Shown here piece after piece: positions 22,954 through 40,587 of a stretch of 64,000 bases of DNA. This DNA comes from Planctomycetota bacterium. GTDB lineage: Bacteria; Planctomycetota; J058; J103. Position 1 is the stretch's first letter. Each line of letters opens with the position of its first letter. A program made the position numbers and the translations under genes. The notes beneath the pieces were generated by a model, which was not told where the DNA came from, made no database searches, and saw only the letters and a list, made by a program, of their open reading frames with translations. Location of the stretch: positions 477 to 64,476 of the forward strand of contig BPJM01000005.1 in the NCBI GenBank assembly GCA_026004615.1, read 5' to 3'.

Positions 22954-26296
<3,343 letters not shown>

Positions 26297-26653
26297 GCCG
26301 GCAGCACGCTGCCAGGGTCCGGGGGGGCGAGCGCTGCGCGCGATCCGCGAGCCCTGGCAGCGCGCGCCCCTGGCGGGCGGTGCCCTCGCGTGCCGCCGGT
26401 CCGGCTCCAGCGGCGGGGTCTGCCGTTCGCCGGAACCGCGCGGGCGCGCCGCCGGTCCAAATCCTCTGGACAGAAGATGCCGGCGCGGTGGGCGCCACCG
26501 CCGGCGTCCGGACGGGCGAGCCCGCGGTTTGACGGTGTCGAGGCGTCCGTGCTAGGATCCGAGCTGCGGCAGGGATTCGCGCAACCTGTTACATGGCTTG
26601 GGGTTCACGGCCTCCATGCCGAGGCGCAACCGCGGGGGGCAAGGAGAGGGCTC

Positions 26654-28108
26654 ATGGTCGCAGCGCGAAGGCTCGCCACGCTCGCCCTGGCCGGTCTGCT
26701 GGGGCTGGCGCTGGGCTGTCGGTCGAGCATGTCCTATTACAACGAGGGCGTCGCGGAGCTGGAGCGGCGCAACTACGAGGCCGCGATCGAGCTGTTCACC
26801 GAGGCGCTGGATGCCGACCCGCGCAGCCATCTGGCGCTGGTGAACCGGGGCTATGCGTATCTGGAGACCCAGCGGCTGCACCAGGCGCTGGAGGACTACG
26901 ACCGCGCGATCCGGCTGCTGGAAGACAGCAACACCCCCAATCCGTGGTTTTACAACCGGCGCGGCGAGGCGTACTACATGCTCGGCCGCTACGCCGAGGC
27001 GCTCGCCGACTGGCGGCGTGCGAAGGACCTGGAGGACCGGCGCGCGGCGAAGGGCATCAAGGTGCGCGTCTCGGCAGACTACCTCGCGATGCAGCAGCGG
27101 CGCGAGGAGCTGATGGTGGACGCCGAGCGCCAGGTGGCGCTCGCGCCCCCGCTCGCCACCGCGATCCCGACCACGCCGCCGGTGCTCGAACCGGCGAGCA
27201 CGCCGGCGGCGCAGCCCTCGCCCGCACCGGAGATCGCTGCTGAGGTCGCGCGCGAGGTGCCGAGCCCGGAACAGGAGCTGGCGCTCGCCGAAGCGCGGCT
27301 GGCGCACGAGGCGGCCCGCCTGGAGGCCGAGGCGCGCGCCGCGGCGGCCGCCGCCCCGCCTGCGCCGCCGGCGCCGACTGGGGCCGAGATCGAGGCGGCG
27401 CTGGCGGAGGCGCGCGCTCTGCACGGGGCGGCGCGCGCCCAGGCCGAGGCGCGGGCGGCGGCGGCGCAGCCTGCACCGCCGCCGGCCGGCCCCAGCGCGG
27501 AGGAGGTCGAGCGGGCGCTGGCAGAGGCTCGGCTCGTGCACGGGGCGGCGCGGGCCGAGGCCGAGGCGCGGGCGGCGGCGGCGCAGCCCGCACCGCCGCC
27601 GGCCGGCCCCAGCGCGGAGGAGGTCGAGCGGGCGCTGGCAGAGGCTCGGCTCGTGCACGAGGCGGCGCGGGCCGAGGCCGAGGCGCGGGCGGCGCTCGCC
27701 GCGGCGCCTGCGGCTGCTGTCCCTGCGCCCGGCGAGGCCCAGCCTGCGGCGGCCGCGCCGCGCCCGCGCCCCATCGCGGATCTGAGCGGTACCTGGGTCC
27801 GGGATGACGAGTACACCTTCACCCTGCTCGATGACGGGCGCCGGGTCGTGGGCGAGATCGTCGGGACCGAGGATTTCTCGTTCTACGAGGTCACGCTGGA
27901 GTGGACGTCGGATCGCACCCTGACGGGCTACGCGGTGCTCAAGGAAAATCTCTCGCCGTGCAAGTTCGAGACCTCCATCGCCTGGTCCGTCGACGTGGTC
28001 GACGAGGGCACGCTCGCCGCGCGGACCGAGGAGGTCGGCTGGGACGCGGAGTGCCACGAGACCGAACGCACCTGGGGGCGCCACACGTTCACGCGGTTGC
28101 CCCGCTGA
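26654..28108 (+). CDS. Lipoprotein with N-terminal TPR-like repeats, a tandem Ala/Glu/Arg-rich repeat region and a C-terminal beta-rich domain.
   Basis: An AAGGAGAGG ribosome-binding site lies 3 nt before the ATG. Lipobox LALGC|RSS. TPR-like segments (YEAAIELFTEALDADP, YDRAIRLL, YAEALADWRRA). There are 3-4 copies of a 39-aa repeat. Confidence 0.7.
   Translation: MVAARRLATLALAGLLGLALGCRSSMSYYNEGVAELERRNYEAAIELFTEALDADPRSHLALVNRGYAYLETQRLHQALEDYDRAIRLLEDSNTPNPWFYNRRGEAYYMLGRYAEALADWRRAKDLEDRRAAKGIKVRVSADYLAMQQRREELMVDAERQVALAPPLATAIPTTPPVLEPASTPAAQPSPAPEIAAEVAREVPSPEQELALAEARLAHEAARLEAEARAAAAAAPPAPPAPTGAEIEAALAEARALHGAARAQAEARAAAAQPAPPPAGPSAEEVERALAEARLVHGAARAEAEARAAAAQPAPPPAGPSAEEVERALAEARLVHEAARAEAEARAALAAAPAAAVPAPGEAQPAAAAPRPRPIADLSGTWVRDDEYTFTLLDDGRRVVGEIVGTEDFSFYEVTLEWTSDRTLTGYAVLKENLSPCKFETSIAWSVDVVDEGTLAARTEEVGWDAECHETERTWGRHTFTRLPR
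27290..27710 (+). repeat. Tandem in-frame 117-nt (39-aa) coding repeat, 3 near-identical copies plus 1 diverged copy.
   Basis: gcacggggcggcgcg...gctcggctcgtgca recurs at 27421, 27538 and 27655. Protein unit AEARAAAAQPAPPPAGPSAEEVERALAEARLVHGAAR. Confidence 0.8.
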
Positions 28109-28179
28109 GCGGTAGGTGGGGCGGGAGACAACGTTGCTCGCCGCCTGGCGGCGGGCGCAGAGGTGAGGTGGACGGGAGC

Positions 28180-30621
28180 ATGGTCGGCTCGTTGCGAGGG
28201 GAGCACAAGGGCAGGCGGCGCGCGGGAGGCGTTCTGGCTGCGGCGCTGCTGGGTGTGGCACTCGCCGGCGGTTGCTCGACGCTCGGGCCCGCCCCGGACA
28301 ACGAGGCCATCCTCGCGGAGCTGCAGGACCTCAAGCGCGAGAGCCCCTTGCCGCAGGCGATCGCGGTCGCGCCGGTCCAGGTGGACCTGGTCTATGCCCG
28401 CGAGGCGGAGGAGGGTGAGGGCGAGCAGGCCGCATCCGAGGAGGGTGCGCCGCCTGCTGGCGGTGCCGGCGCCGAGCAACCGGCAGGGCAGCCGGGCGGG
28501 CCCCAGACCGGCATGGCGCCCCTGCCGGCCGGCGCCTCCCTCGCTGCGACCGACCTCCCTCGGCTGGCCACCCGGCTGGGGATCGAGGTCCGCTACCGCC
28601 GCCCGCTGTTCCGCGAACTGCTCTTCTCCCCGCGCGATCCCCTCGAGGGGGGGCCGGTCGAGCAGCCCGGCACCGAGGATGCGGGCGCCGGCGGGCAGCC
28701 GGGTGTGCTGTACGTCTGCCCGCGCTGCCAGAACGAGGTCTCGGCGACGATCGCGCGCTGTCCGTGGTGCGGTCTCGCCTTCGCTCCCGAGCTCCCGCCG
28801 GGTGAGCCCGCATCCGCGCCGCCGCAAGCGGTGGCGGAGCAGGCGCCACCCGCCGCGACGCCTGCGCCCGCGGGCGAGGCGGTGGCGGCGCGCGCGGAGG
28901 TCGACCGCTACATCTGCTACTTCTGCGAGAGTCCGATCGAGCCCACGGCGCTGGTCTGTCCGAACTGCGGCGTCGAACTGCAGCCCGTGCCCGGCCTGCA
29001 GGGCGAGCTGGCGCGGGAGGAGCAAGGGCCACCCGGCAAGGAGGAGCGCATCGGTCGCCTGACCGTCGGGGCGTTGAAACGGCTGGCACAGTCGCGGGCC
29101 GCCTTCGGCGTGGATCCGGTGGAGGTGCAGCGCGACCTCGCGCAGCTGGTCGAGGGGCTGGGCCTGTTCAGCGAGGTGACGGTGATCAGCGAGCAGACGC
29201 TCGTCGGCAAGACCGATGCGCTGCTCGACTGGGCGGCGGGCAACTACATCGACTATCTCATGATCCCGAGGCTTCGCCGCAACGAGATCCAGTTCGTGAA
29301 GACGAACGCCTCGTGGTGGGGCGGGCTGGCGCTCTGGGTGGCCGCCTGGGTGCCCTCGTTCTGGGTGGCAGGCGAGGACTACCAGGCGGATGTGGAGCTG
29401 GAGCTGGAGGTGTGGAGCGTCCGCGCCCGCAAGCCGATGCCGCAGTGGAATCCGACGGTCAGGGGCCGGGCGGTCGCGAGTGCGGATCAGCTCGACCGGC
29501 GCCTCAATCTGTTCCCGTGGCTCGGCTGGGACTTCATCGGGGTGCCCGCGGGTTTCGCCAACCTGACCGATGGCGGCTGGCTCAATCTCAACCGCTGGAT
29601 GACGCCCAACGCCTTCGCCGACATGAAGCGCAACCTGCTCAAGCAGCTGCACGAGTACTTCGCGGTGGCGGGCGCCTATCCGCCGCCGCCGGTCGACGTA
29701 CAGGAGGTGGCGCTGCTGGTCGGCGTCCACGAGGTGCGGCGCTCGCCCGGGGTGGGGGTGCAGCGCCAGCTGCAGTTCGCGATCAACGACCTCGAGGCGA
29801 TGAAGCTCTGCTTCACCCAGGTGACCGGCTGGGACCCCGGAGCAGCAGGCGCAGCGGGGCGCGCCGGGCGGCGCAGCCGCACCGTCGCGCTTCTTCCGGG
29901 CGCGGAGAACCCCGAGCTGCAGGCGACGACGCAGAACCTCCGCAACTGGCTCAACGTCGACCTGCAGCGGCTCGGCCCGAACGACACGTTCGTCTTCTAT
30001 TTCGCGGGCTATGGCGCCGCTCTGCCGGCACCTCCCGGTCAGCAACCATCCTGGGCGGACGGCTACGAGCGCTACCTGATCACGCACGACACCGACCCGA
30101 GCCGCATCCCGGAGACCGCGTTGAACGTCGTCGAGCTGATGAATGCGATCCGCAACTGCGCAGCGCGGCGCGTGCTGATCGTGCTGGATTGCTCGTTTGC
30201 CAAGGTGCCGGAGGATCAGTCCATCGGTTCCGGCCGCACCTGGCCGACGGGCATCGCCGAGGAGCAACTCGCCAATCTCAACGACGAGTTCCTCATCGAG
30301 CTGGCCAGGCGCACCGCACCGAAGAAGTGCGTGGTGTTCGCGGCCGCGGACATCCGGCACCCGGCATACGAGAGCCAGTTCACCCGGCCGCCCAACCACG
30401 GGCTGTTGACCGCGGCCTTCCTGGAGGGCGTGGCCGAGGGCCGGGCGGATGTCGAGGTGGGCGACGGCAACGGGGCGGTGACGCTGTTCGAGCTGGAGAA
30501 GTTCATCAGCTCGCGCTATCGGGCCTTCCAGGCGGCCTCCGGCGTGGCGGTGCGCTTCGTCTCCGGCGGCGATCTCGGCGACATGGAGATCGTGCTGCGC
30601 CCCAAGCCGGCGGAGCAGTGA
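28180..30621 (+). CDS. Lipoprotein with an acidic linker, a double zinc ribbon, a hydrophobic segment and a C-terminal caspase-like (peptidase C14 fold) domain whose catalytic His is replaced by Tyr.
   Basis: Lipobox LAGGC|ST. Zinc ribbons CPRCQNE..CPWCG and CYFCESP..CPNCG. Caspase pattern FVFYFAGYG...YLITHDTD...RRVLIVLDCSFA, which has Y in place of the His of the HG motif, and the Cys is retained. Confidence 0.7.
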   Translation: MVGSLRGEHKGRRRAGGVLAAALLGVALAGGCSTLGPAPDNEAILAELQDLKRESPLPQAIAVAPVQVDLVYAREAEEGEGEQAASEEGAPPAGGAGAEQPAGQPGGPQTGMAPLPAGASLAATDLPRLATRLGIEVRYRRPLFRELLFSPRDPLEGGPVEQPGTEDAGAGGQPGVLYVCPRCQNEVSATIARCPWCGLAFAPELPPGEPASAPPQAVAEQAPPAATPAPAGEAVAARAEVDRYICYFCESPIEPTALVCPNCGVELQPVPGLQGELAREEQGPPGKEERIGRLTVGALKRLAQSRAAFGVDPVEVQRDLAQLVEGLGLFSEVTVISEQTLVGKTDALLDWAAGNYIDYLMIPRLRRNEIQFVKTNASWWGGLALWVAAWVPSFWVAGEDYQADVELELEVWSVRARKPMPQWNPTVRGRAVASADQLDRRLNLFPWLGWDFIGVPAGFANLTDGGWLNLNRWMTPNAFADMKRNLLKQLHEYFAVAGAYPPPPVDVQEVALLVGVHEVRRSPGVGVQRQLQFAINDLEAMKLCFTQVTGWDPGAAGAAGRAGRRSRTVALLPGAENPELQATTQNLRNWLNVDLQRLGPNDTFVFYFAGYGAALPAPPGQQPSWADGYERYLITHDTDPSRIPETALNVVELMNAIRNCAARRVLIVLDCSFAKVPEDQSIGSGRTWPTGIAEEQLANLNDEFLIELARRTAPKKCVVFAAADIRHPAYESQFTRPPNHGLLTAAFLEGVAEGRADVEVGDGNGAVTLFELEKFISSRYRAFQAASGVAVRFVSGGDLGDMEIVLRPKPAEQ

Positions 30622-30699
30622 GCAGCGCGGGCGCAGCGGGACGCCCTGGCGCCTGGGGGCAGGCCGCAGCGGCGGAACCCGGCCGCGGTCGGGCCCGAC

Positions 30700-31578
30700 C
30701 TAGCGCAGCTCGATCACGCAGCGCAGCCCGTGCCACAGGTGCCGACTGGCGGGGGGCCAGCCGAGCCGCCCGCTGGTCGTGAGGACATCCCAGCAGGCAA
30801 AGGAGGTCGCATAGCCGCCGCCGCGGTCGGAGCGCTGCCGCAGGTCCAGTCCCAGGCGCGCGCGCAGTGCATCGTCCAGGCAGGGATCGACGTCCAGTCC
30901 GGCCTGGACGCACCAGCGGTAGAAGCCTTCCCAGTACCAGTCGCGGCACCAGTTGTTGACGTTGCCCGCCATGTCGGTCAGGCCGTAGGGGCTGCGGCCC
31001 TCGGGGTAGCGGCCGAGCTCGGAGGTCCGGCCGAGCCGCCCGTCGAAGTTGCACAGCTGCGATCGCGGCAGCGCCTCGCCCCAGGGAAAGCGCCGGCGGT
31101 CGGTGCCGCGCGCCGCTTTCTCCCACTGCGCCTCCGTGGGTAGCTGCTTGCCGGCCCAGCGGGCATACGCGTCCGCCTCGTACCAGGAGAGCCCCGCGGC
31201 CGGCTGCCGCTCGCCGTCGAACCCCACGGTGAGGAAGCTCAGCGGGCGGGTCACGCCGGTGGCGCTCCGCCACGCCCAGCCGTCCTCGCGCCACAGCTCG
31301 GGTCGCGTATAGCCGCCGTCGGCGATGAACTGGGCGAACTGGGCGTTGGAGACCGGGTCCCGATCGATCAGGTAGGCGCTCAGCCACACCACACGCCCGG
31401 GCAGCTCGTCCTCGGGGGCGAACAGATCGCCGGGCTCACGGCCGATGAAGACCTCGCCGGCAGGCACCAGCACCATGACCGCGCCGTCGCGCGGCGCGCG
31501 CCAGCACCCCCCGGCGCGCGCGATCTCGCGCGCGTCCGGCGCGGTGCCCGGTGTGCCTTCCCCGAGCTGCCCGCGCAT
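30700..31578 (-). CDS. FGE-sulfatase / SUMF1 family domain protein (formylglycine-generating-enzyme-like), 292 aa.
   Basis: MVLVPAGEVFIGREPGDLF...RVVWLSAYLIDRDPVSNAQFAQFIADGGY...LPTEAQWEKAARG...GNVNNWCRDWY. Only the 3' 879 nt of ORF 30700..32019 is real. Its ATG at 31578 follows the REC gene stop. Confidence 0.8.
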   Translation of the reverse strand: MRGQLGEGTPGTAPDAREIARAGGCWRAPRDGAVMVLVPAGEVFIGREPGDLFAPEDELPGRVVWLSAYLIDRDPVSNAQFAQFIADGGYTRPELWREDGWAWRSATGVTRPLSFLTVGFDGERQPAAGLSWYEADAYARWAGKQLPTEAQWEKAARGTDRRRFPWGEALPRSQLCNFDGRLGRTSELGRYPEGRSPYGLTDMAGNVNNWCRDWYWEGFYRWCVQAGLDVDPCLDDALRARLGLDLRQRSDRGGGYATSFACWDVLTTSGRLGWPPASRHLWHGLRCVIELR

Positions 31579-31583
31579 CGCGG

Positions 31584-32015
31584 TTACCTCCCCTCGGGGT
31601 GCTCGCCGCCCGGTGACGAGGTGGCACCGGCCGCCCGGGTCCGCCGCCCGATTGCCGCCTGCAGGCGCGCTGCGATCTCCATGATGGTGTGGGTGCCCTT
31701 GACGATGACCTCGTGTGCGCCAAGCGCGAGGGCGCGCTCCACGTTGCCCCGGATGGGGTGCGAGGTGTAGACCAGCACCGGCGGCGCGTCCGGTCGGCCG
31801 CGCAGGTGCTCCAGCACGCCGAATCCGTCGATCACCGGCATGGCGAGGTCGAGCAGCACCGCATCGATCGGCTCGCGCTCCAGCGCCTCGATCGCAGCCT
31901 GCCCGTCGGTGACCTCGATCACCCGATAGCCGCGGCGCTCCAGGATGAGGGCGAGCGGCCGCCGGACGATCGACAGATCCTCGGCTACCAGCACGCTCGG
32001 CCGCGGTCCGCTCAT
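31584..32015 (-). CDS. Single-domain response regulator (CheY-like receiver).
   Basis: VLVAEDLSIVRRPLALILERRGYRVIEVTDGQAAIEAL...DAVLLDLAMPVIDGF...VLVYTSH...K. Confidence 0.85.
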   Translation of the reverse strand: MSGPRPSVLVAEDLSIVRRPLALILERRGYRVIEVTDGQAAIEALEREPIDAVLLDLAMPVIDGFGVLEHLRGRPDAPPVLVYTSHPIRGNVERALALGAHEVIVKGTHTIMEIAARLQAAIGRRTRAAGATSSPGGEHPEGR

Positions 32016-33175
32016 GCACCGGCCGCTCCGGAAATGGCTGCCGCCTGGCGCGACGGCAGGGCGATCACGACGCGACAGGCCTCGGGGCTGGCCTGCAGCC
32101 GCAGCGTGCCGCCCAGCGCGGCCGCCGCGGCGCGCGCGAAACTCAGCTCCAGCTCATCGTTGAGCGCGACGCCGGCGGCCCGGAGCGCGCGCCGCGCCGC
32201 CGGATCCAGCAGCGCGCGCTCCAGGGTCGCCGAGCCGCCGGGCATGCCGGGCAGCGGCCCCAGCTCCAGCTGCACACCGCCGGCCTCGCTGCGCTCGACC
32301 GCGAGGACCGGCGGCGCCTGCGCGGCGCTGCCGGCGGCCGCCGCGTTCGCCCCCGCCCGCAGCAGGCACTCGCAGAGCCGGACGGCGAGCGCGCGGTCGG
32401 CTGCCAGCACCGCCGCCTCCAGGCCGGGCGCCACCCTGACCGGTACCGCCCCGGGGGCTGCCGGCCCGCGCTCCGCCGGCCCATCGGCGGCCTGCAGTCG
32501 TGCCACCGCCTGCCGCAATACCTCGGCGAGCGGCACCGGCTCGGGTCGATGGTACAGCTCGTCGCGCTCGAGCAGTTCCAGATCGTCCAGGTTCTCGACC
32601 AGGCGGTGCAACCGCGCTCCCTCTCGGCGCGCAAGCGCCACCAGCTCGCGTTGGGGCGGCGTCAGCGCGCCCGCCAGGCCCTGCTCCAGGGCCTCGAGGT
32701 TGCGGTGCAGCGCGCCGAGCGGGGTGCGCAGGTCCTCCGCCAGCATGTGGCGGAGCGTGGCGCGGCCAAGCGCAAGCTCGACCAGGCGCATGGCGTTGCG
32801 CAGCCGGCGCGTCAGTTCCGGCAGATCGAATGGCTTGGCCACATAGTCCATGGCGCCGTAGCGCAGCGCCTCGCGCGCGCTGTCCAGCTCTCCGTACGCG
32901 GTGACGATCACGAAGGCCGGTATCTCGCCGCTGGCGCGCTGCCGTACCGCGCGCAGCAGCTCCACGCCGCTCATCCCGGGCATCTTGAGATCGGACACCA
33001 CCAGTGCCGGCAGCGCCTTGTCCATCCGCGCCAGCGCCGGCTCCGCCGCCTCGAACGCCTCCACGCGCCATCCCTGGCGTTTGAGCTGGCGCATCAGGAC
33101 CTCGCGGATCACCGGCTCGTCGTCGACGACGAACACCAGGTCCCGCTCGACCAGTTGCAGCAGTCCGGGCTCCAT
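32012..33175 (-). CDS. Response-regulator receiver fused to a histidine-kinase-like domain. The phospho-accepting His is replaced (AEDLRTPL) and the ATPase boxes are degenerate, so this is a pseudo-histidine kinase.
   Basis: REC: LVFVVDDEPVIREVLMRQLKRQGWRV...VVSDLKMPGMSGVELL...VTAYG. DHp-like region: LAEDLRTPLGALHRNLEALEQG, where the consensus is sHELRTPL. I could not find clear N, G1 or G2 boxes. The stop overlaps the REC gene start (ATGA). Confidence 0.7.
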   Translation of the reverse strand: MEPGLLQLVERDLVFVVDDEPVIREVLMRQLKRQGWRVEAFEAAEPALARMDKALPALVVSDLKMPGMSGVELLRAVRQRASGEIPAFVIVTAYGELDSAREALRYGAMDYVAKPFDLPELTRRLRNAMRLVELALGRATLRHMLAEDLRTPLGALHRNLEALEQGLAGALTPPQRELVALARREGARLHRLVENLDDLELLERDELYHRPEPVPLAEVLRQAVARLQAADGPAERGPAAPGAVPVRVAPGLEAAVLAADRALAVRLCECLLRAGANAAAAGSAAQAPPVLAVERSEAGGVQLELGPLPGMPGGSATLERALLDPAARRALRAAGVALNDELELSFARAAAAALGGTLRLQASPEACRVVIALPSRQAAAISGAAGA

Positions 33176-33385: not shown

Positions 33386-36106
33386 TCAGCGAGCAGGCGC
33401 GTGCGGGGACACCCGGCCACCGAGCAGCGTGAACAGCAGCACGCACAGGCACAGCGCCGCCAGCACGGGCACCAGCGGGTTGGCGCGCAGGAAACTGAGC
33501 AGCTTCTCGCGGCGGAACAGCTCCGGCGCCCAGCTCGCGGCCGCCCGGTACTGTTCGAAGGCCAGCCGCCAGTCGCCCGCGGCCATGGCCTCGGCGCCGC
33601 GCGCGCCATGGATGGCGGCGAGGCTCTGCGCCACCTGGGCCTCCAGGTTGGCATCCAGCGCGCGCGCCGCGTAGAGAAAACGGATCGCATCCTCCAGCGG
33701 CCGGCCCTCGCGCACCACCCGGTAGTCCCCGGTGGGCGCCAGGCGCTGCACCATGCTGGAGTGGACCCAGCCCTGCAGGCCGGCGGCGTCGACGACCTGC
33801 AGCCACGGCCCGACGGAACCACCACCCGGATGCGGCGCCAGGAGCTCGCCGGGCACCAGTGAGCGCGCGCTGCCGTACGCCTCACCCGGGCCGCGGCGCA
33901 GCAGTGGCTGCTCGCGCAGCTCCAGCCCGATAGTGTAGCACAGGCGCGCGAGCTGCCGGCGCAACTCTCCGTGCTCGGGTGCCAGGAAATACGCCCGCAG
34001 CAGCGCTCCGACCTTCCAGCGCCGCGCCTCCACTCGCGGCGGCGGGCTGTCCGCTGCCTCCAGCCAGCGCACGGCCAGGCGTTCCGCCTGATCCTGCAGG
34101 CGGCGCCGCGTTTCGGCCAGGCTCTGGAGCGCGTTCTGGGCCCAGGCGAGGTGTGTGCGGATCTCATCTGCCGTGCGGCCCCGCTGGTGGCTCACGATCT
34201 TGCCGAGGAGCTGGCGCCGGCGCTCCTGCTCGGGCAAGGCCGGCAGCACGGCGTCGAAGAAGTGGGAGTCGGCCTTCGGCAGCTCGAGCGCCTGGGCCAG
34301 CTCGAGCAGGGTGCCCGGGTGCACCTCCTCCAGCGCCAGCAGGACCTGCTGCGCCGCGCCAGGCTGCTCGTCCCGGAGCGCGTTCGCCAGCCACTGGACC
34401 GCCTGCAGTCGCCGCGCCTGGAAGACGGCGCGTGCCGCGAGCTGGACCTCGCGGTCGGGGTGCTGTGTGAGCGGCAGCGCGGCGCGAAAGGCGATCTCCG
34501 CCTCCGGGCGCAGCAGCTCCAGCAGCTCGAGCGCGCGCACAAGCTGCGTCTCGGTCCGCATCGCGCGCGGACTCGTGGCGCCGGCCGCGTCCGGCACCGC
34601 GATCGCTGCGGCGGGCTTCGCCAGCACGCCGAGCAGGTAGTCCTGCGCCTGGCGTCCGAACTGCGCGAACGCCTCCGCCAGCGGGCGGCTCGTCCCCGCT
34701 GCCCCCAGGCAGTAGTGGTAGAACAGCAGCGGCAGGTAGCTGGCGTTGCCGCTCTCGACCATGGCGGCCAGCGCCGCCCGGCGGAGCGACTGCTCGCCCC
34801 GCTCGTATGCCTGGACCAGCGCTGGCACGGCCCGCTCGTCCCCGAAGGGGACGAACTGCTCGGGCGCGTAGATCGGCTCGATCACGAGGTCCTGCGGTTG
34901 CAACAGACGGGTGCGCCAGCTCCAGGCGACCGGGGTCTCGGGCAGCATCGGCGGCAGTGTCAGCTGCTCGCTCTTTGCCTGCATGCCCACCTCGACCACC
35001 GTGGGCCGTCCCTCCAGCAGGACCGCGCGATGGTAGCTGCCCTGGTACGTGAACTGTCTTCCCAGCCGTGCCAGGCGCTCGAAGTCCTCGCCGTCGGCGG
35101 TCAGCTGAGCCCGGATGCGGACCAGCTGGTCAGGTTCGACCAGCAACTCTCCCCGGGCTGTCACGCGCAGCCGCGCTCCCACGAGCAGGTGCCCCGGGCG
35201 CCGGTGCACCGCTGTCCCGGTCACGACCCAGAGCTGTGCGGCCGGGTCCAGGCTGCCCTGGCCCACCTCCACCGCCACGGACAGCAACACCGGCTGGAGC
35301 GGGCGAGCGTCCCCGGGAGCGGTCGCGGGCCCGGCGAGCGCCCGGGGGTCGATTGCCTGGAGGCGGCGGATCTCGGCGCGCGGGATGGTGACGCTCCGCT
35401 CCTCGGCGGTCCGGAGCACGACCGCCTGCTCGGTCACCCGCTCGACGTAGCCGCGCACCCCGTCGATCTCGAGCGCTGCACCGACCTTCAACAGCTCGGC
35501 GAAAGCCTGCCCGGACGCCGGCTCCCCTTCCGTGCCCCCGCGCTCCGCGTCGCGTTCGAGCACTTCATACGCGCGGATATCCCCCAGTCCGAGCACGACC
35601 ACCCCCGCGCTGCGCCCCTCTGGATCGAGCAGGTACAGGTCCGGCGGATCGTAGCGCTGCAGCCGCCAGCGCACCGGGCCGCTGCCGCGGTCCACGACGA
35701 CCAGCGCTCCGGGCGGCGTCGCACGGATGCGGCGGTCCATCTCCACCGCCAGGGGCGAGGAGAGGGCGGCGTTGCCGGGGGCCGGCTCTGTTCCGCTCTG
35801 CTGGCCGAGCTGCACCTGCACCACGCGCTCGTGTTCGTCCAGCAGCAGCCGCACCGAGCGGCCGCGGGGCAGCAGCTCCGCGCGGTGCAGGCGCTGCAGT
35901 TCGGCGAGTGCCTCCGGGCTCAGCTCGAAGCTACGACCGCCGCGCAGCATAACGACCGGCCGCTCGCCTGGCTGGCGGGGGACGACGTGGAAGTCGTACT
36001 GGCCTTCGACCGCGGAGGGCGGTGGCTCGTCCTGGGCGAGGGCCGGGGACGCGCTACAGGTCAAGATCAAAAACGCCAGTAGGATGCGGAGCATACCGTA
36101 GAGCAT
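33386..36106 (-). CDS. Large (906 aa) secreted or membrane-anchored protein with a signal peptide and a C-terminal TM segment, hypothetical.
   Basis: Signal peptide MLRILLAFLILTCSASPALA|QDE. Long helical repeat-like regions. C-terminal TM LVPVLAALCLCVLLFTLLGG. Confidence 0.55.
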   Translation of the reverse strand: MLYGMLRILLAFLILTCSASPALAQDEPPPSAVEGQYDFHVVPRQPGERPVVMLRGGRSFELSPEALAELQRLHRAELLPRGRSVRLLLDEHERVVQVQLGQQSGTEPAPGNAALSSPLAVEMDRRIRATPPGALVVVDRGSGPVRWRLQRYDPPDLYLLDPEGRSAGVVVLGLGDIRAYEVLERDAERGGTEGEPASGQAFAELLKVGAALEIDGVRGYVERVTEQAVVLRTAEERSVTIPRAEIRRLQAIDPRALAGPATAPGDARPLQPVLLSVAVEVGQGSLDPAAQLWVVTGTAVHRRPGHLLVGARLRVTARGELLVEPDQLVRIRAQLTADGEDFERLARLGRQFTYQGSYHRAVLLEGRPTVVEVGMQAKSEQLTLPPMLPETPVAWSWRTRLLQPQDLVIEPIYAPEQFVPFGDERAVPALVQAYERGEQSLRRAALAAMVESGNASYLPLLFYHYCLGAAGTSRPLAEAFAQFGRQAQDYLLGVLAKPAAAIAVPDAAGATSPRAMRTETQLVRALELLELLRPEAEIAFRAALPLTQHPDREVQLAARAVFQARRLQAVQWLANALRDEQPGAAQQVLLALEEVHPGTLLELAQALELPKADSHFFDAVLPALPEQERRRQLLGKIVSHQRGRTADEIRTHLAWAQNALQSLAETRRRLQDQAERLAVRWLEAADSPPPRVEARRWKVGALLRAYFLAPEHGELRRQLARLCYTIGLELREQPLLRRGPGEAYGSARSLVPGELLAPHPGGGSVGPWLQVVDAAGLQGWVHSSMVQRLAPTGDYRVVREGRPLEDAIRFLYAARALDANLEAQVAQSLAAIHGARGAEAMAAGDWRLAFEQYRAAASWAPELFRREKLLSFLRANPLVPVLAALCLCVLLFTLLGGRVSPHAPAR

Positions 36107-36228
36107 TCAAGCACCCCGCACCGGCACTGTCAACGCGCGCCCAGGCGCGCCGGCTCCGTCCCCTGGCGGCGGAGGACAGCACGGCCTATCATGGCGGTGA
36201 GACGGCTCCACGGAGGGCCCCGAGCCCC

Positions 36229-37932
36229 ATGTCCATCTCGAAACTGCTGTTCGGCGAGATCGCGCTCAAGAAGAAGCTGGTCACCAAGGACCAGGTCGAG
36301 GAGTGCCTCGAGATCCAGAAGCGCCTCAAGGAGATGGGCATCAACAAGACGCTCGGCGCCATCATGCACGACAAGAAGTACCTCTCGATGGTGGAGATCA
36401 AGGAGATCCTTCGTGAGATGACCGGCACGAAGGACTGGAACGCCATCGAGGGCTACGAGATCCTCGGCAAGCTCGGCAAGGGCGGCATGGGCAGCGTGTA
36501 CAAGGCGCGCCATACCCGGCTGGACAAGCTGGTCGCGCTCAAGGTGTTGCCGCCGGAGCTGGCGGGCGACCAGGAGTACCTCGACCGGTTCATGCGCGAG
36601 GCCCACGCCGCCGCCAAGCTCAATCACCCCCACATCGTGCAGGCGCTCGATGTCGGCGAGAGCTACGGCTACCACTACTTCGTCATGGAGTACGTCGAGG
36701 GCCGCACGGTCAAGGAGATGATCGACGAGCAGGGCACGCTCGACGAGCTGACCTCGCTCCGCATCATCGCCCAGATGGCCGAGGCGCTGGAGCATGCGTG
36801 GCGCAACGAGATCGTGCACCGCGACATCAAGCCCTCGAACATCATCGTCACCCGGGCCGGGGTGGCCAAGCTGTGCGACCTGGGGCTGGCGAAGACGGTC
36901 GACGATGATTCCACGATCACCCAGACCGGCGTGATCATGGGGACCCCGTTCTACCTCTCGCCCGAGCAGGCACGCAGCGAACCGCTCGACTGCCGGAGCG
37001 ACATCTACTCGCTCGGAGTCACCCTGTTCCACATGGTGACGGGCCAGGTGCCTTTCACCGGCAACTCCGCGGCGACGATCCTGTACAAGCACATCTTCCT
37101 CGACCCGCCCAACCCCAAGAGCCTCAACCCGTCGCTGAGCGACGGGACGGTGAAGTTGCTGCGCCGCATGCTCGCCAAGCGCAAGGAGGACCGGTTCGCG
37201 GACCCGACCGAGCTGCTCGCTGCGGTGCGCGAGGTGATCGCACAGCTCCGTCCCGAGGCGGTCACCGAGCAGGTGCGCGGCGACGCCGAAGCGCACGGAG
37301 CGCTGCTCGCTTCCCGCGCGGAGGCGAGCGGAGCCAGCAGCGGTGCGCTCGCCCGCACCGTCGATCTCACCTCGCCCCACCCCTCGGTGGCGGCGGCGGA
37401 GGCGGGAGCGCCGCCAGGGCAGGGCAGCGCGGCGGTGACGGTGGGCGGGCGCTGGTCGCGCAGTCGCCTGGTGGCGGCGAGTTTTGCCACGCTGGGGCTG
37501 GCCGCCACCACCGCCCTGCTCGCCGCCAATGTGCTGCTTCCGGTCGAGCGCCCGGCCGCCGAGGCAGCCCTCGACCCCGTCGCCCTTCTCATGCCCCTGG
37601 ACCGGCCGCGGCCCGAGGTGGAGGCGGCACTGCGGCGCGGACAGGAGCTGCTGCAGGCACATCGCTATGCCGAGGCCCTGGCGGTGATCGATCAGCTGCC
37701 GGCCGAGCCGCCGCTCGAACCGGCGGAGCTGGGGGCCGTGCTCCGGCTGCGCGAGCAGGTGCTCCTGGCGGCCATGAGGCGGCCCGAGGAGCTTCGCCGG
37801 CGCCACGAAGCCGGCGAGGACGTGCTGGCCGAGGTGCGCGCCCTGGGGTTGTCGGCGCTGGCCGACGAGCTGCGCAGGCACGAGGAGTGGCTGGGGCGCC
37901 AGCGCCCGCCCGCCCCCATGCCCGAGCGCTGA
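36229..37932 (+). CDS. Ser/Thr protein kinase with an N-terminal MshEN/T2SSE_N-like domain and a C-terminal TM plus TPR-like tail.
   Basis: N-terminus: MSISKLLFGEIALKKKLVTKDQVEECLEIQKR...LGAIMHDKKYLSMVEIKEIL. Kinase: GKGGMGSVYKARH, HRDIKPSNI, DLGLAK, GTPFYLSPEQ. A GGAGGG ribosome-binding site precedes the ATG. Confidence 0.85.
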   Translation: MSISKLLFGEIALKKKLVTKDQVEECLEIQKRLKEMGINKTLGAIMHDKKYLSMVEIKEILREMTGTKDWNAIEGYEILGKLGKGGMGSVYKARHTRLDKLVALKVLPPELAGDQEYLDRFMREAHAAAKLNHPHIVQALDVGESYGYHYFVMEYVEGRTVKEMIDEQGTLDELTSLRIIAQMAEALEHAWRNEIVHRDIKPSNIIVTRAGVAKLCDLGLAKTVDDDSTITQTGVIMGTPFYLSPEQARSEPLDCRSDIYSLGVTLFHMVTGQVPFTGNSAATILYKHIFLDPPNPKSLNPSLSDGTVKLLRRMLAKRKEDRFADPTELLAAVREVIAQLRPEAVTEQVRGDAEAHGALLASRAEASGASSGALARTVDLTSPHPSVAAAEAGAPPGQGSAAVTVGGRWSRSRLVAASFATLGLAATTALLAANVLLPVERPAAEAALDPVALLMPLDRPRPEVEAALRRGQELLQAHRYAEALAVIDQLPAEPPLEPAELGAVLRLREQVLLAAMRRPEELRRRHEAGEDVLAEVRALGLSALADELRRHEEWLGRQRPPAPMPER

Positions 37933-37944
37933 GCGCGCCCGGAC

Positions 37945-40341
37945 CTAGCGGTTGGCGCGCCGCTCGATCGCCTCGATCGCCTGCTTGAGCTTGTTCTTGA
38001 TGTAGTGGTGGGCCTCGCGCTCGTAGGCCGCCTGGAGCATGGGCAGGTCGCTGGTCTCGCCCACCCGCGCCAGGTACCTCGCAGCCTCGGCACGATTGTT
38101 GAGCCGATCGTCGCGTTGCAGCACGTCGGTGAAGAACGCCATCGCCTCGCGGCCCGCCTTGCCAGCCAGAGCCCGGATGGCGGTCGAGCGCACGGAGGCA
38201 TTCTGCTCCTGGCGCGCCAGGTCGGCCAGAAATGCGGTATCCTGGGGGCCCGCCGCCTTGCCCTCCAGCGCGCGGATCGCCTCTATACGCGCATTCGGAT
38301 CGGAATCGCCGCGCGCGATGTCCTGCAACGCCGCCACGCCCGCACCGCCCTCGGCCGAGCCCAGGGCGCGGATGAGGTACTTCTTGATGCGTGCGTCCTG
38401 CTCGCTCCTGGCCAGCGCCTCTAGCTCGGCGACGTCCTCGGGCCGGTCGAGCTTCTGCAGCATGAACAGCAGGCGCAGCTTCTCGCCCGCATCCTGCGTG
38501 GTGCGGATCGCATCGATGAGGTCGCGCGTGCTCGCGCGCCCCTCGATCGCGCGCAGCACGTAGCCGAGCGAGACCTTGACGTTGAACTGGCGTTCGTTGT
38601 CGTAGGCCTGTTTGAGCGCATCGGCGATCTCGCGGCCGCGAGCGACCAGCGCCTGCTCTTCACGGCGGATCGCTTCCTGGTCGCGCGCACGGTGGGCGCG
38701 CCGCAATCCCTCCAGGAGGTCCCCCGGCACCGGTTCGGCCTCGCTGTCTTCCTGGGGCGCCGCCTCCGGGTCGGGTTCTGCCGCCGCGCCGAGCGCGGGC
38801 TGCGCCGCCGGCGCGGCGGCCGCCCGCACCGGCGGGGCGGGCGCCGCTGCAGCGGCCGGCGGCGCCGGCGCCCGGGATGGCTGCTCGGCACGGCGCAGGC
38901 TCTGGACGGACAGCGGCTCGACGGGCCGGAACGCCGCCGGCGGCACGGGTGCGGCGATCCGCGTGCTGCTCGCCCGCAGCGGCTGGATGTCGTCCGCGCC
39001 GATGAGCTTGTACACCATGTACACGCACGCGATGAGCACGACCCCGGCTGCGGCGTATCCGAACCACTCGCGCCGCCGCGCCCAGCGCCCGCCGAGCGGC
39101 GCCACCGGTTGCGCGGCGAAGGGGCCCGCAGCAAGCGCGGCGGTCGCCTCGCTCTGCGGCTCGCCGCCGCTGGCGGCGGGGGCGGCTGCGGCCGCGCCGC
39201 CCCCGCCCGCACCTGCAAGGGCCACCGCCGGCCGAATCCCGCTCTGCACCGCGGCCTCGGCAGCGCTCTCCTCGGCGGCCGGGGCGGTCAGCAGCGCCGC
39301 GAGCGCCGGCCGCTCGGCCCGCGCCTCGGCCAACAGCCGTGCGTAGGCCTTCGCCTTGCCGCGCAGCACGCGATCCATCTCCTCGAAGTCGCGCCGCACC
39401 GCCTCGAGCTTCTCCAGCAGCCCCGCGACGCGCCGATCGGCTACCTCCTCGGTCTGGCGCAGCTGCTCGCGCAGCCGCGCGATCTCCTCGTCGCGCTGGC
39501 GCAGCAGCTGCTCGGTTTCGGCGTACCGCTTGGCGAAGCTGTGGATGCGCTCCTTGGCCCGCTCGAGCTGTTCGACGAAGGACTCGGTGGCCAGGCTCAG
39601 CCCGTCGCGCTTGCGTCGCAGCTCCTGCTCCAGCTCCTGCAGGCGCGCGCGCAGATCGACGTTCTCCTCGCGCTCGCGCTCCAGCTCCGCGCGCAGGCGA
39701 TCCAGCTCGGCAGCACTCCCTGCCGCCTCGAGGGGGGGCGGGGCCGGAGCGGGGGCGGCAGCCGGCTCGTCCGCCTGCTCGGGCGCGGCGGCAGCCTCCA
39801 CGCCCGCCGTCGCAGCCATGGGGTCGATGCCCGCGGGCGGCGAAAGGGGCGGAGCGGCAGGCGCTGCCGCCGGCGCGCTCGCCCCCTGCGGCGCCGCTGG
39901 CGGCGCGGAGCCGCTGCGCGCGAGCAGCGCCTGCACGGCCGTTGCGGCGTCGGAGCCCTCTTGCGCGGCCGCAGCGCCTGTCGCCGCCGCCGCCCCGGCT
40001 GGCTCTTGTCCCGCCGCGGCACCTGCCGGCGCGGCCTGCAGCGGTACGGACCCGGCCTGGGCGGCGAAGACAAGCTCCACCTGGCCGATGCGGATGCGAT
40101 CCCCATCGCTGAGCGCCTTGTGCAGGACGCGGCGATCGTTCACCTCCACGCCGCCCCGGCTCTGCAGGTCCTCCACCCAGTACCGCCCGCCGCGGTGGTA
40201 CACCCGGGCGTGGCTCCACTCGACACCGGGGTCCGTGCAGGTGAGCCCGGAGGCCTCATCGCTGCCGATGATCACGCTGCCGTCGCCGAGTCGGACGGAG
40301 TGCCCGCGGCGACTACCGGAGACGACGTGGAGCGCTGCCAT
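37945..40341 (-). CDS. FHA-domain protein with a coiled coil, one TM segment and C-terminal HEAT (PBS-lyase-like) repeats.
   Basis: FHA: LHVVSGSRRGHSVRLGDGSVIIGSDEASGLTCTDPGVEWSHARVYHRGGRYWVEDLQSRGGVEVNDRRV. Coiled coil: ELDRLRAELEREREENVDLRARLQELEQELRRK. TM: WFGYAAAGVVLIACVYMVYKLI. HEAT-like: ARIKKYLIRALGS..NARIEAIRALEG..SVRSTAIRALAG. Start at the ATG at 40341. Confidence 0.8.
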   Translation of the reverse strand: MAALHVVSGSRRGHSVRLGDGSVIIGSDEASGLTCTDPGVEWSHARVYHRGGRYWVEDLQSRGGVEVNDRRVLHKALSDGDRIRIGQVELVFAAQAGSVPLQAAPAGAAAGQEPAGAAAATGAAAAQEGSDAATAVQALLARSGSAPPAAPQGASAPAAAPAAPPLSPPAGIDPMAATAGVEAAAAPEQADEPAAAPAPAPPPLEAAGSAAELDRLRAELEREREENVDLRARLQELEQELRRKRDGLSLATESFVEQLERAKERIHSFAKRYAETEQLLRQRDEEIARLREQLRQTEEVADRRVAGLLEKLEAVRRDFEEMDRVLRGKAKAYARLLAEARAERPALAALLTAPAAEESAAEAAVQSGIRPAVALAGAGGGGAAAAAPAASGGEPQSEATAALAAGPFAAQPVAPLGGRWARRREWFGYAAAGVVLIACVYMVYKLIGADDIQPLRASSTRIAAPVPPAAFRPVEPLSVQSLRRAEQPSRAPAPPAAAAAPAPPVRAAAAPAAQPALGAAAEPDPEAAPQEDSEAEPVPGDLLEGLRRAHRARDQEAIRREEQALVARGREIADALKQAYDNERQFNVKVSLGYVLRAIEGRASTRDLIDAIRTTQDAGEKLRLLFMLQKLDRPEDVAELEALARSEQDARIKKYLIRALGSAEGGAGVAALQDIARGDSDPNARIEAIRALEGKAAGPQDTAFLADLARQEQNASVRSTAIRALAGKAGREAMAFFTDVLQRDDRLNNRAEAARYLARVGETSDLPMLQAAYEREAHHYIKNKLKQAIEAIERRANR

Positions 40342-40587
40342 GGCTCGCTCGGTCCTCGCCCTGGGGCTCGCGGTGGCCTCGGTCACGGTCGAACTGCCCC
40401 CTTCATCATCCTGATCCGACCCGCCCGAACACGGGGCGCGCCGGCAGCACGCCGGGCCAACCCGCGGGCGGCACCGGCCCCGAGTGTGCACCGGTTGGGA
40501 CGCCCCGGGCGCGCACCGGGTTCAGCGGCCGGCACCGGGCATGCTTGCGCCGGCGGCTGGCCTGCCCTGGCCGCAGGTGGCGCAGTG

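Follow-up and report, generated by a model that had tools for sequence, protein, structure and literature searches.

A predicted lipoprotein with a Tyr/Ser pseudo-orthocaspase domain from a Planctomycetota bacterium, probably a non-catalytic periplasmic receptor or scaffold

We analysed a 64,000-nucleotide (nt) stretch of DNA from a Planctomycetota bacterium (assembly GCA_026004615.1, contig BPJM01000005.1, positions 477 to 64,476 of the forward strand), hereafter called the window, which carries a gene for an 813-amino acid (aa) predicted lipoprotein ending in a caspase-fold domain. Sequence alignment indicates that both residues of the catalytic dyad of this protein, called here the window protein, have been replaced (His by Tyr611 and Cys by Ser672) and that the two Asp residues of the substrate-binding S1 pocket have been kept. 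The best explanation, to which we give a probability of roughly 60%, is that the window protein is an exported, lipid-anchored pseudo-orthocaspase that acts as a non-catalytic periplasmic peptide-binding receptor or scaffold.

The most plausible start codon of the gene is the ATG at position 28180 of the window, preceded by GGTGGA/GGGAG, and the stop codon ends at 30621. The G+C content at third codon positions (GC3) of this frame is 0.86, a value typical of real genes in the window, whose overall G+C content is about 73%. An identical 813-aa product is present at NCBI as KatS3mg102_1722, a hypothetical protein from a Planctomycetota metagenome-assembled genome (MAG). The initial annotation of this DNA had pointed to caspase-like motifs at 29880-30300 within a lipoprotein that carries two Cys4 zinc ribbons and an acidic linker, and each of these elements was recovered in the same open reading frame (ORF). 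The motifs FVFYFAGYG (aa 604-612, nt 29989-30015), YLITHDTD (aa 632-639, nt 30073-30096) and RRVLIVLDCSFA (aa 663-674, nt 30166-30201) are all in frame, the ribbons lie at aa 178-198 and aa 244-264, the linkers are acidic, Pro-rich and of low complexity, and the lipobox LAGGC32 is found at the N-terminus.

The C-terminal domain has the caspase-hemoglobinase fold, and the resemblance goes beyond chance. The Pfam model Peptidase_C14 (PF00656) matched aa 509-682 with an E-value of 2.7e-6 and 27.7 bits, above its curated cut-off of 21.4, and it also matched 28 of the 36 family members. A full-length AlphaFold2 model built with 36 family sequences had a mean predicted local distance difference test score (pLDDT) of 80.5, with values above 90 throughout aa 505-808. 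When compared with the PDB by Foldseek, this domain gave Arabidopsis metacaspase 9 as the best match (E=2.3e-10), with GSU0716 (PDB 3bij, E=4e-10), metacaspase 4, MALT1 and a Candida metacaspase also retrieved, each at a probability of 1.00 and within a listed range of E=2e-10 to 1e-7. Pfam and Foldseek thus returned the caspase fold that had been proposed. Here again, a profile of the family recovered metacaspases among the PDB sequences at E=2e-7; a single-sequence phmmer search of the PDB gave noise alone (nanobodies and RNF41, E>0.1), so that the metacaspase matches needed the family profile. The fold also includes its C-terminal half (aa 700-808), which resembles that of bacterial orthocaspases with a His/Cys (HC) dyad.

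The catalytic positions were read from an alignment of relatives. An exhaustive HMMER search of representative sequences yielded 626 relatives at E<=1e-3; the best 150 of these, together with P0002-P0004, made up a sample of 153 proteins, whose 168 caspase domains were aligned to the profile. The family came from this exhaustive search, a word-indexed homologue search having retrieved no more than one ortholog and a handful of unrelated caspases besides the window protein. Canonical relatives read YFAGHGA ... LD[ATSC]C[YH]SG and the window protein reads YFAGYGA ... LDCSFAK. Among the 168 domains, column 670 is an invariant Asp, column 671 (Cys in the window protein) is A in 57, T in 53, C in 26 and S in 22, and column 672 (Ser in the window protein) is C in 81, S in 50, G in 17 and A in 9. 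The 81 domains with Cys in column 672, the catalytic Cys column, include all 78 that have the His/Cys dyad, the remaining pairs being YS (29), YA (7), LS (7), FS (6) and rarer ones. No insertion or deletion was found between the invariant Asp and the nucleophile in any of the domains. In this alignment the catalytic His is replaced by Tyr611 and the nucleophile position is occupied by Ser672, and because column 671 is the variable x of D-x-C, Cys671 is not the catalytic Cys. Alignment of the family profile (YFaGYG) with HYSGHG of AtMC4 also sets Tyr611 opposite the catalytic His. The Tyr at the His position, as read in the initial annotation, is therefore borne out by both alignments; the Cys that it considered as retained lies one residue upstream of the catalytic position, and both residues of the dyad are lost according to the alignment. 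It should also be noted that P0003 and P0004, which combine a signal peptide, Peptidase_C14 and DUF4384, display another pseudo-caspase architecture with a Leu/Ser dyad (FYFAGLG ... VIDASMTA); the D-x-[C/S] register of the canonical motif first became apparent from these two proteins.

The S1 pocket of metacaspases, which accommodates a basic residue, is formed by two Asp, D95 and D211 in TbMC2 (as cited in PMC6426788). By alignment, D537 and D670 of the window protein correspond to this pair. Among the 36 proteins that share the architecture of the window protein, D537, G610 and D670 are the sole invariant residues, and Y607, G612, D602, D637, F673 and E771 are at least 90% conserved. When 42 Y/F-S/A proteins were compared with the 78 HC proteins column by column, both groups shared the scaffold motifs (D602, D637, R686, E731, HG.FT and AD..DG..E), and they differed in the dyad and in the S-G that follows the Cys alone. 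A changed dyad and S-G in a scaffold that keeps its pocket Asp residues is the signature of a pseudo-enzyme with a preserved binding site. YS pseudo-orthocaspases have likewise been reported to keep the acidic pocket (PMC6426788).

Throughout the family, the loss of the dyad is tightly coupled to the N-terminal domain of the window protein. Of the 153 proteins, 73 carry this domain, and the dyad differs from HC in 70 of these; among the 80 that lack it, 74 are HC. The remaining three carriers of the N-terminal domain are HC, and their caspase domains are closest to those of other HC proteins. Regarding whether Tyr or His came first, a point raised in the initial annotation, Tyr or Phe together with Ser is fixed in the clade that shares the architecture of the window protein, and His/Cys is found in more distant relatives, the closest relatives outside the family being HC orthocaspases with 33-39% identity. 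Sequence comparison thus places His/Cys as the deeper ancestral state. All of the relatives whose clusters were looked up are metagenomic proteins.

The N-terminal half of the protein points to the cell envelope. The signal peptide consists of RRR, a 15-residue hydrophobic core and LAGG-C32, and in 14 of the 16 family members inspected the N-terminal hydrophobic segment likewise ends in an [AGS]-C lipobox. From these sequence features the window protein is a bacterial lipoprotein, with lipidation predicted at Cys32. Export by the Tat pathway, which was considered in view of the RRR n-region and of the Tat-like signals of cyanobacterial YS forms, was not adopted, the twin Arg being absent in the orthologs P0005, P0006 and P0007. 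The P.P...AVAPV motif at the start of the mature protein is also conserved in relatives of about 500 aa. A second model, covering aa 33-500 (pLDDT 78, and above 90 in the folded parts), contains an alpha/beta domain built from the N-terminal strands and aa 286-460, with long strands at aa 359-375, 399-413 and 426-435, and a 33-residue helix (aa 464-496) that connects this domain to the caspase domain. No Pfam or NCBIfam model matched aa 33-76 or aa 286-500, the latter region being without matches even at E<=1, and the Pfam models for CsgG, LptE and related proteins gave no match in the window protein. Foldseek retrieved the CsgG pre-pore (4uv2, E=2.6e-4) as the best match of the N-terminal domain, and further matches were the flagellar LPHT ring, CT253, XCC0632, LptE, FlgT, PelC, GNA1162 and LpoB. 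Since these matches are weak (TM-score normalised to the target of 0.3-0.47 and less than 15% identity), the link to CsgG, LptE and PelC would be one of fold class and not of family membership. These top matches are for the most part lipoproteins of bacteria or proteins associated with the envelope, CsgG, LptE, PelC and LpoB being periplasm-facing outer-membrane lipoproteins. The conservation of the lipobox and these fold matches support an extracytoplasmic, lipid-anchored location of the whole protein. A CsgG-like outer-membrane pore formed by the long hairpins was also considered, and no evidence in its favour was found.

The alpha/beta domain is interrupted by an insertion whose linkers have pLDDT values below 50 (aa 80-122, 146-171 and 210-241). 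The two CxxC...CxxC knuckle pairs of a double zinc ribbon are present, with a Pfam DZR score of 24.4 that remains under the cut-off of 27.3. All eight ribbon Cys are conserved in orthologs, and the CPRC ribbon is found in every long ortholog. The number of ribbons varies from one to eight, exclusively in the subfamily of about 800-1100 aa and never in the relatives of about 500 aa. P0017 (1128 aa) carries eight consecutive CPRC-type zinc ribbons within its insertion. A pattern scan of genome contigs with the zinc-ribbon peptides retrieved just haloarchaeal zinc-ribbon loci, which are irrelevant here. The coordinates of these features and of the neighbouring genes are given in Table 1.

Table 1. 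Features of the window protein gene and of its neighbourhood (positions in the window)
Feature	Position	Strand	Basis
Complete gene, 813-aa predicted lipoprotein with C-terminal Tyr/Ser pseudo-caspase domain	28180..30621	+	ORF, start codon, GC3, identical NCBI protein
Signal peptide and lipobox (RRR, hydrophobic core, LAGG-C32)	28180..28275	+	Sequence itself
First strands of lipoprotein domain, motif P.P...AVAPV	28276..28407	+	pLDDT 84-98; strands 57-63, 70-73
Subfamily-specific insertion: acidic, Pro/Ala-rich disordered linkers and two zinc ribbons	28408..29034	+	pLDDT, family comparison
Zinc ribbon 1, CPRC-x11-CPWC	28711..28773	+	Motif; Pfam DZR/Zn_ribbon below cut-offs
Zinc ribbon 2, CYFC-x11-CPNC	28909..28971	+	Motif; Cys conserved in orthologs
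Main body of N-terminal alpha/beta lipoprotein domain and long linker helix (aa 464-496)	29035..29679	+	Models, Foldseek
Trp-rich uncharged segment WWGGLALWVAAWVPSFWVAG, aa 379-398	29314..29373	+	Conservation, model
Caspase-fold (Peptidase_C14) pseudo-protease domain, aa 505-808	29692..30603	+	Pfam, Foldseek, family profile against PDB
Asp537, first S1-pocket Asp (N-D motif)	29788..29790	+	Invariant in 36/36 family members; aligned with CVND of AtMC4
Tyr611, catalytic His position	30010..30012	+	Column H 83, Y 43, L 10, F 6 (168 domains)
Asp670-Cys671-Ser672: second S1-pocket Asp, variable x, Ser at catalytic Cys position	30187..30195	+	Alignment columns
Membrane Ser/Thr kinase, one transmembrane helix, long helical region, C-terminal FGE-sulfatase (C-type-lectin-like) domain (aa 819-1059)	23099..26296	+	Pkinase E=7e-45, FGE-sulfatase E=6e-45
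Sigma-70-like promoter match upstream of TPR gene	26529..26558	+	Only match in 26200-30900; consensus-level
TPR lipoprotein, 39-aa repeat x3.6, two-Cys C-terminal domain	26654..28108	+	TPR_1 E=6e-20
Stand-alone FGE-sulfatase-domain protein, convergent	30700..31578	-	FGE-sulfatase E=1.4e-46
Response regulator, receiver domain only	31584-32015	-	
Response regulator with HisKA domain	32012-33175	-	
Secreted protein of about 900 aa, signal peptide and C-terminal hydrophobic tail	33386..36106	-	Orthologs, synteny
Second Ser/Thr kinase	35953-37932 (stop-to-stop ORF)	+	
FHA-HEAT protein	37945-40521 (stop-to-stop ORF)	-	

The order kinase-FGE, TPR lipoprotein, pseudo-caspase, FGE protein and ~900-aa protein recurs in the metagenomic loci L002, L006, L009 and L013, in each of which the kinase-FGE gene is kept upstream. 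The pseudo-caspases of these four loci are 31-46% identical to the window protein, the lowest value being that of L013. The TPR gene adjoins the pseudo-caspase gene in L002, L007, L009 and L013, and the GC[RG]SS lipobox and the two-Cys C-terminal domain of the TPR partner are conserved in four orthologous loci. In the window, the TPR gene has the same orientation as the pseudo-caspase gene no terminator-like site was found between the two, and the sole promoter-like match lies ahead of the TPR gene, an arrangement weakly consistent with an operon. The initial annotation had described the TPR gene in the same way, as a likely operon partner; the description holds, with a gap of 71 nt instead of 72. 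The stand-alone FGE protein is 60-67% identical to its counterparts at the same position in L002, L006 and L009 and is also found in L013; the ~900-aa protein has orthologs (28-36% identity) at the equivalent place in L002, L006 and L009, and is syntenic in L013 as well.

The FGE domains of the kinase and of the stand-alone protein appear to lack the paired catalytic Cys of true formylglycine-generating enzymes such as the human one. Both may be binding domains. The FGE-sulfatase domain adopts a C-type-lectin fold; a role as a ligand-binding or neutralising module, often found together with caspases, has been suggested for it (PMC7159879). The region is also rich in signalling genes (second kinase, FHA-HEAT protein, response regulator and receiver-HisKA protein) and may constitute a phospho-signalling hub. 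A defence system was rejected as an explanation of the locus: PADLOC gave a weak generic match for the caspase, its PD-T4-6 matches to the neighbouring gene were those of a generic kinase domain, and no EACC1, STAND, vWA-MoxR or other defence partner was found in the neighbourhood. The EACC1-associated caspases of defence systems (NF047832) gave the best NCBIfam match to the window protein (E=8.4e-9), yet its 35.2 bits are far below the cut-off of 140.

Several features of these and related loci deserve mention in their own right. Within the TPR gene, a 117-nt unit is repeated 3.6 times in tandem at positions 27275-27694 (82% matches); it encodes a 39-aa Ala/Glu/Pro-rich repeat, EEVERALAEARLVHGAARAEAEARAAAA-QPAPPPAGPS, that separates the TPR region from the conserved C-terminal domain. 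The last ~120 aa of the TPR lipoprotein (27740-28105) are its most conserved part: they share 72% of residues with L002 and 61% with L006/L007, whereas the TPR region reaches about 49%. They contain two invariant Cys (SPCKFET...WDxxC), have no Pfam match and may form a disulfide-bonded periplasmic domain. The stand-alone FGE protein has no obvious signal peptide. The ~900-aa protein has a cleavable-looking one (ALA-QD), and its sole domain match is a marginal one to MS_channel_2nd (E=2e-4). Directly downstream of the genes for members of about 500 aa (L012 and the contigs of P0023 and P0036) lies a gene for a protein of more than 1000 aa with FG-GAP/TcdB_toxin_midN, NHL/TEN_NHL or Peptidase_S11 and GH172 domains, the start of which overlaps the stop of the pseudo-caspase gene in two of the three cases (P0021 and P0023). 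This hints that the ~500-aa subfamily has a different conserved partner.

Dyad substitutions in bacterial caspase homologues have precedents. Tyr/Ser, Phe/Ser and Tyr/Ala pseudo-orthocaspases were catalogued by Klemencic, Asplund-Samuelsson, Dolinar and Funk in 2019 and account for 858 of 9,994 bacterial orthocaspases (about 9%); Alphaproteobacteria and Cyanobacteria supply 90% of them, and the most frequent variant is YS (PMC6426788). A Tat-like signal is found in the YS forms of Cyanobacteria and a fusion to TPR repeats in the FS forms of Alphaproteobacteria, and a published hypothesis links pseudo-orthocaspases to photosynthesis (PMC6426788). One of them, SyOC of Synechocystis, has been studied experimentally (PMC7889975). 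The dyad is kept in only 64% of planctomycete caspase homologues, and the same survey reports Ser and Tyr as the commonest dyad replacements and FGE-sulfatase as a frequent fusion partner (Asplund-Samuelsson et al. 2012, PMC3501461). A few planctomycete pseudo-orthocaspases are present in the supplementary alignment of PMC6426788, and those noted there differ in their substitution, as in FFAGRG. Because such changes are already catalogued (PMC6426788, PMC3501461), the His-to-Tyr change of the window protein is of a known type.

The fold, the Y/S dyad and the retained pocket Asp residues, as read from the alignment, place the window protein among the YS pseudo-orthocaspases; orthocaspases are defined by the lack of a metacaspase-type p10 domain, and the assignment made here rests on those three features. 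Like the known YS and FS forms, it combines a p20-type fold, the replacement of His by Tyr or Phe and of Cys by Ser, both S1-pocket Asp and an export signal, which has a Tat-like N-terminus in cyanobacterial YS proteins. It differs from them in its origin from a Planctomycetota MAG, the described forms being mostly alphaproteobacterial or cyanobacterial, and in its partner, since TPR is fused to the alphaproteobacterial FS forms whereas the TPR lipoprotein of the window is encoded by the adjacent gene. The described pseudo-orthocaspases carry C-terminal extensions, TPR, or trypsin and DUF4384; the window protein instead has an N-terminal lipoprotein domain with a Trp-rich hairpin and a zinc-ribbon insertion specific to its subfamily. 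Active bacterial orthocaspases and GSU0716 share the fold and the motifs YFAG.G, D-x-., HG.FT and AD..DG with the window protein, but both keep the His-Cys dyad and the C-[YH]-S-G turn. TbMCA4 of Trypanosoma brucei is reportedly a lipid-anchored membrane protein. It also has Tyr and Ser in place of His and Cys (PMC6426788), but it belongs to the type I metacaspases of eukaryotes, contains a p10 region, has no related N-terminal domain, is acylated on the cytoplasmic face and is processed by the active TbMCA3. Regarding the N-terminal half, the CsgG/LptE/PelC/FlgT/LpoB class is alike in its N-terminal lipobox and may be so in its alpha/beta sandwich that opens with an 'AVAPV'-type strand; however, none of its members bears a caspase domain, and the window protein shows no evidence of a ring or pore. 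We found no earlier description in the literature consulted of a conserved lipobox, a Trp-hairpin N-terminal domain or a zinc-ribbon insertion in pseudo-orthocaspases, nor of the association between this N-terminal domain and dyad loss or of the planctomycete kinase/FGE/TPR neighbourhood.

Taken together, these results lead us to propose the following model. The lipid anchor would hold the protein on the periplasmic face of the membrane, into which the tip of the Trp-rich hairpin probably dips. The alpha/beta domain, interrupted by the acidic disordered insertion and its two Cys4 zinc ribbons, is followed by the linker helix and by a complete caspase domain, which with Tyr611 and Ser672 is most likely unable to cleave peptides. 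The retained S1 pocket probably binds an Arg- or Lys-containing peptide or protein loop and leaves it uncleaved, and the protein could serve as a receptor or scaffold in concert with the TPR lipoprotein encoded next to it, with possible input into the extracytoplasmic FGE domain of the kinase encoded nearby. The pseudo-protease scaffold suggested in the initial annotation is thus the best explanation, both dyad residues being lost. A broader version, which we regard as speculative and rather doubtful, is that the widespread lipoprotein family joins a possibly ring-forming CsgG/PelC-like domain, with its invariant and membrane-dipping Trp-rich hairpin, to a dead caspase whose Arg/Lys pocket is kept, the resulting periplasmic pseudo-protease receptor capturing a basic peptide or tail that in Planctomycetota would be relayed via the TPR lipoprotein to the FGE-lectin domain of the kinase.

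Among the other explanations, the one that fares best, although we consider it unlikely, is that the pseudo-caspase is a decoy, dimerisation partner or substrate of a true His/Cys orthocaspase encoded elsewhere in the genome. The pairs cFLIP/caspase-8 and TbMCA4/TbMCA3 provide precedents (PMC6426788), a decoy function has been suggested for inactive enzyme domains of bacterial conflict systems (PMC7159879), and HC orthocaspases are, as described above, the closest relatives outside the family; on the other hand, no further caspase-like ORF was found in the 64-kb window or in the conserved neighbourhoods.

A different topology, quite unlikely in our view, would make the Trp-rich segment a true transmembrane helix that separates the zinc ribbons and the N-terminal half, across the inner membrane, from a cytoplasmic caspase domain. 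Zinc ribbons are indeed more typical of cytoplasmic proteins, and the segment consists of 20 uncharged and extremely conserved residues: 16 of the 20 residues of WWGGLALWVAAWVPSFWVAG, including the contiguous ALWVAAWVPSFWVAG, are the same in a 46%-identical ortholog, and the family consensus is LW...W.PS.WV.DE.Y. In the AlphaFold2 model, however, the segment forms a helix (aa 377-389) at a tip that joins the strands 359-375 and 399-413, within a domain of pLDDT 85-97; if these strands pair in one sheet, as their adjacency suggests, both ends of the segment would be on the same side. Moreover, the segment stays below the 1.3 threshold in a 19-residue Kyte-Doolittle scan (P0001), and the domain matches periplasmic lipoprotein folds. 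The 20-residue hydrophobic segment noted in the initial annotation is therefore present as an uncharged Trp-rich stretch, modelled as a hairpin-tip helix and not as a membrane-spanning one.

An active hydrolase with non-canonical chemistry, in which Ser672 would be the nucleophile and a conserved aromatic or other residue would assist, is very unlikely, and a caspase-fold serine hydrolase variant built on Ser672 is given at best the same low credence. The 14 closest relatives all read [YF]...D[CT]SF, so that Ser672 is invariant among them; Ser is also the commonest replacement of Cys in the wider alignment, and purifying selection acts on the whole scaffold as well as on the two Asp of the S1 pocket. 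By contrast, five of the 14 closest relatives have Phe at the His position, and others have Leu, Val or Ala there, which leaves no conserved general base, and the comparison with the HC group revealed no conserved residue specific to the pseudo-caspases that could supply one. Many proteins that share the architecture have Ala or Gly at the nucleophile position (YA in seven; LG, VG and HG pairs), and the Gly of the C-x-S-G turn after the nucleophile is relaxed relative to HC. The enzyme with non-canonical chemistry put forward in the initial annotation thus finds neither a conserved Cys671 nor a conserved residue at the His position in close orthologs. That Cys671 itself is a retained catalytic Cys, His alone being lost, in a Cys protease with a Tyr partner or a shifted nucleophile, is hardly credible: LDCSFA superficially resembles DxCxSG and Cys671 is kept in nine of the 14 closest relatives, but the canonical D-[ATSC]-C without indel puts Cys671 at x, and the position is Thr in the other five (P0006, P0008, P0009, P0012 and P0015) and A, T or G in the wider family.

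Some observations weigh against the receptor or scaffold that we favour. The invariance of Ser672 could reflect a chemical and not a structural role, and zinc ribbons are atypical for a Sec-exported protein. The collinearity of the loci extends to housekeeping genes (ArsA, isochorismatase and ProRS), and part of the conserved gene order may reflect collinear related genomes and not functional linkage; in addition, the short relatives of about 500 aa sit in other gene contexts. Finally, the function of the whole family is deduced from sequences and models.

The reading of this locus carries a lesson for annotation, as a Cys that adjoins the nucleophile position can mimic a retained catalytic Cys. 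As for the family, the same Tyr/Ser (or Phe/Ser) solution as in the described pseudo-orthocaspases occurs in a non-phototrophic lineage and is fixed in a large metagenomic lipoprotein clade. The TPR lipoprotein, the FGE-domain kinase and the stand-alone FGE protein are candidate partners offered by the locus. The coupling of the dead dyad to one particular N-terminal envelope domain suggests that these proteins serve more generally, outside photosynthesis, as extracytoplasmic binding modules.

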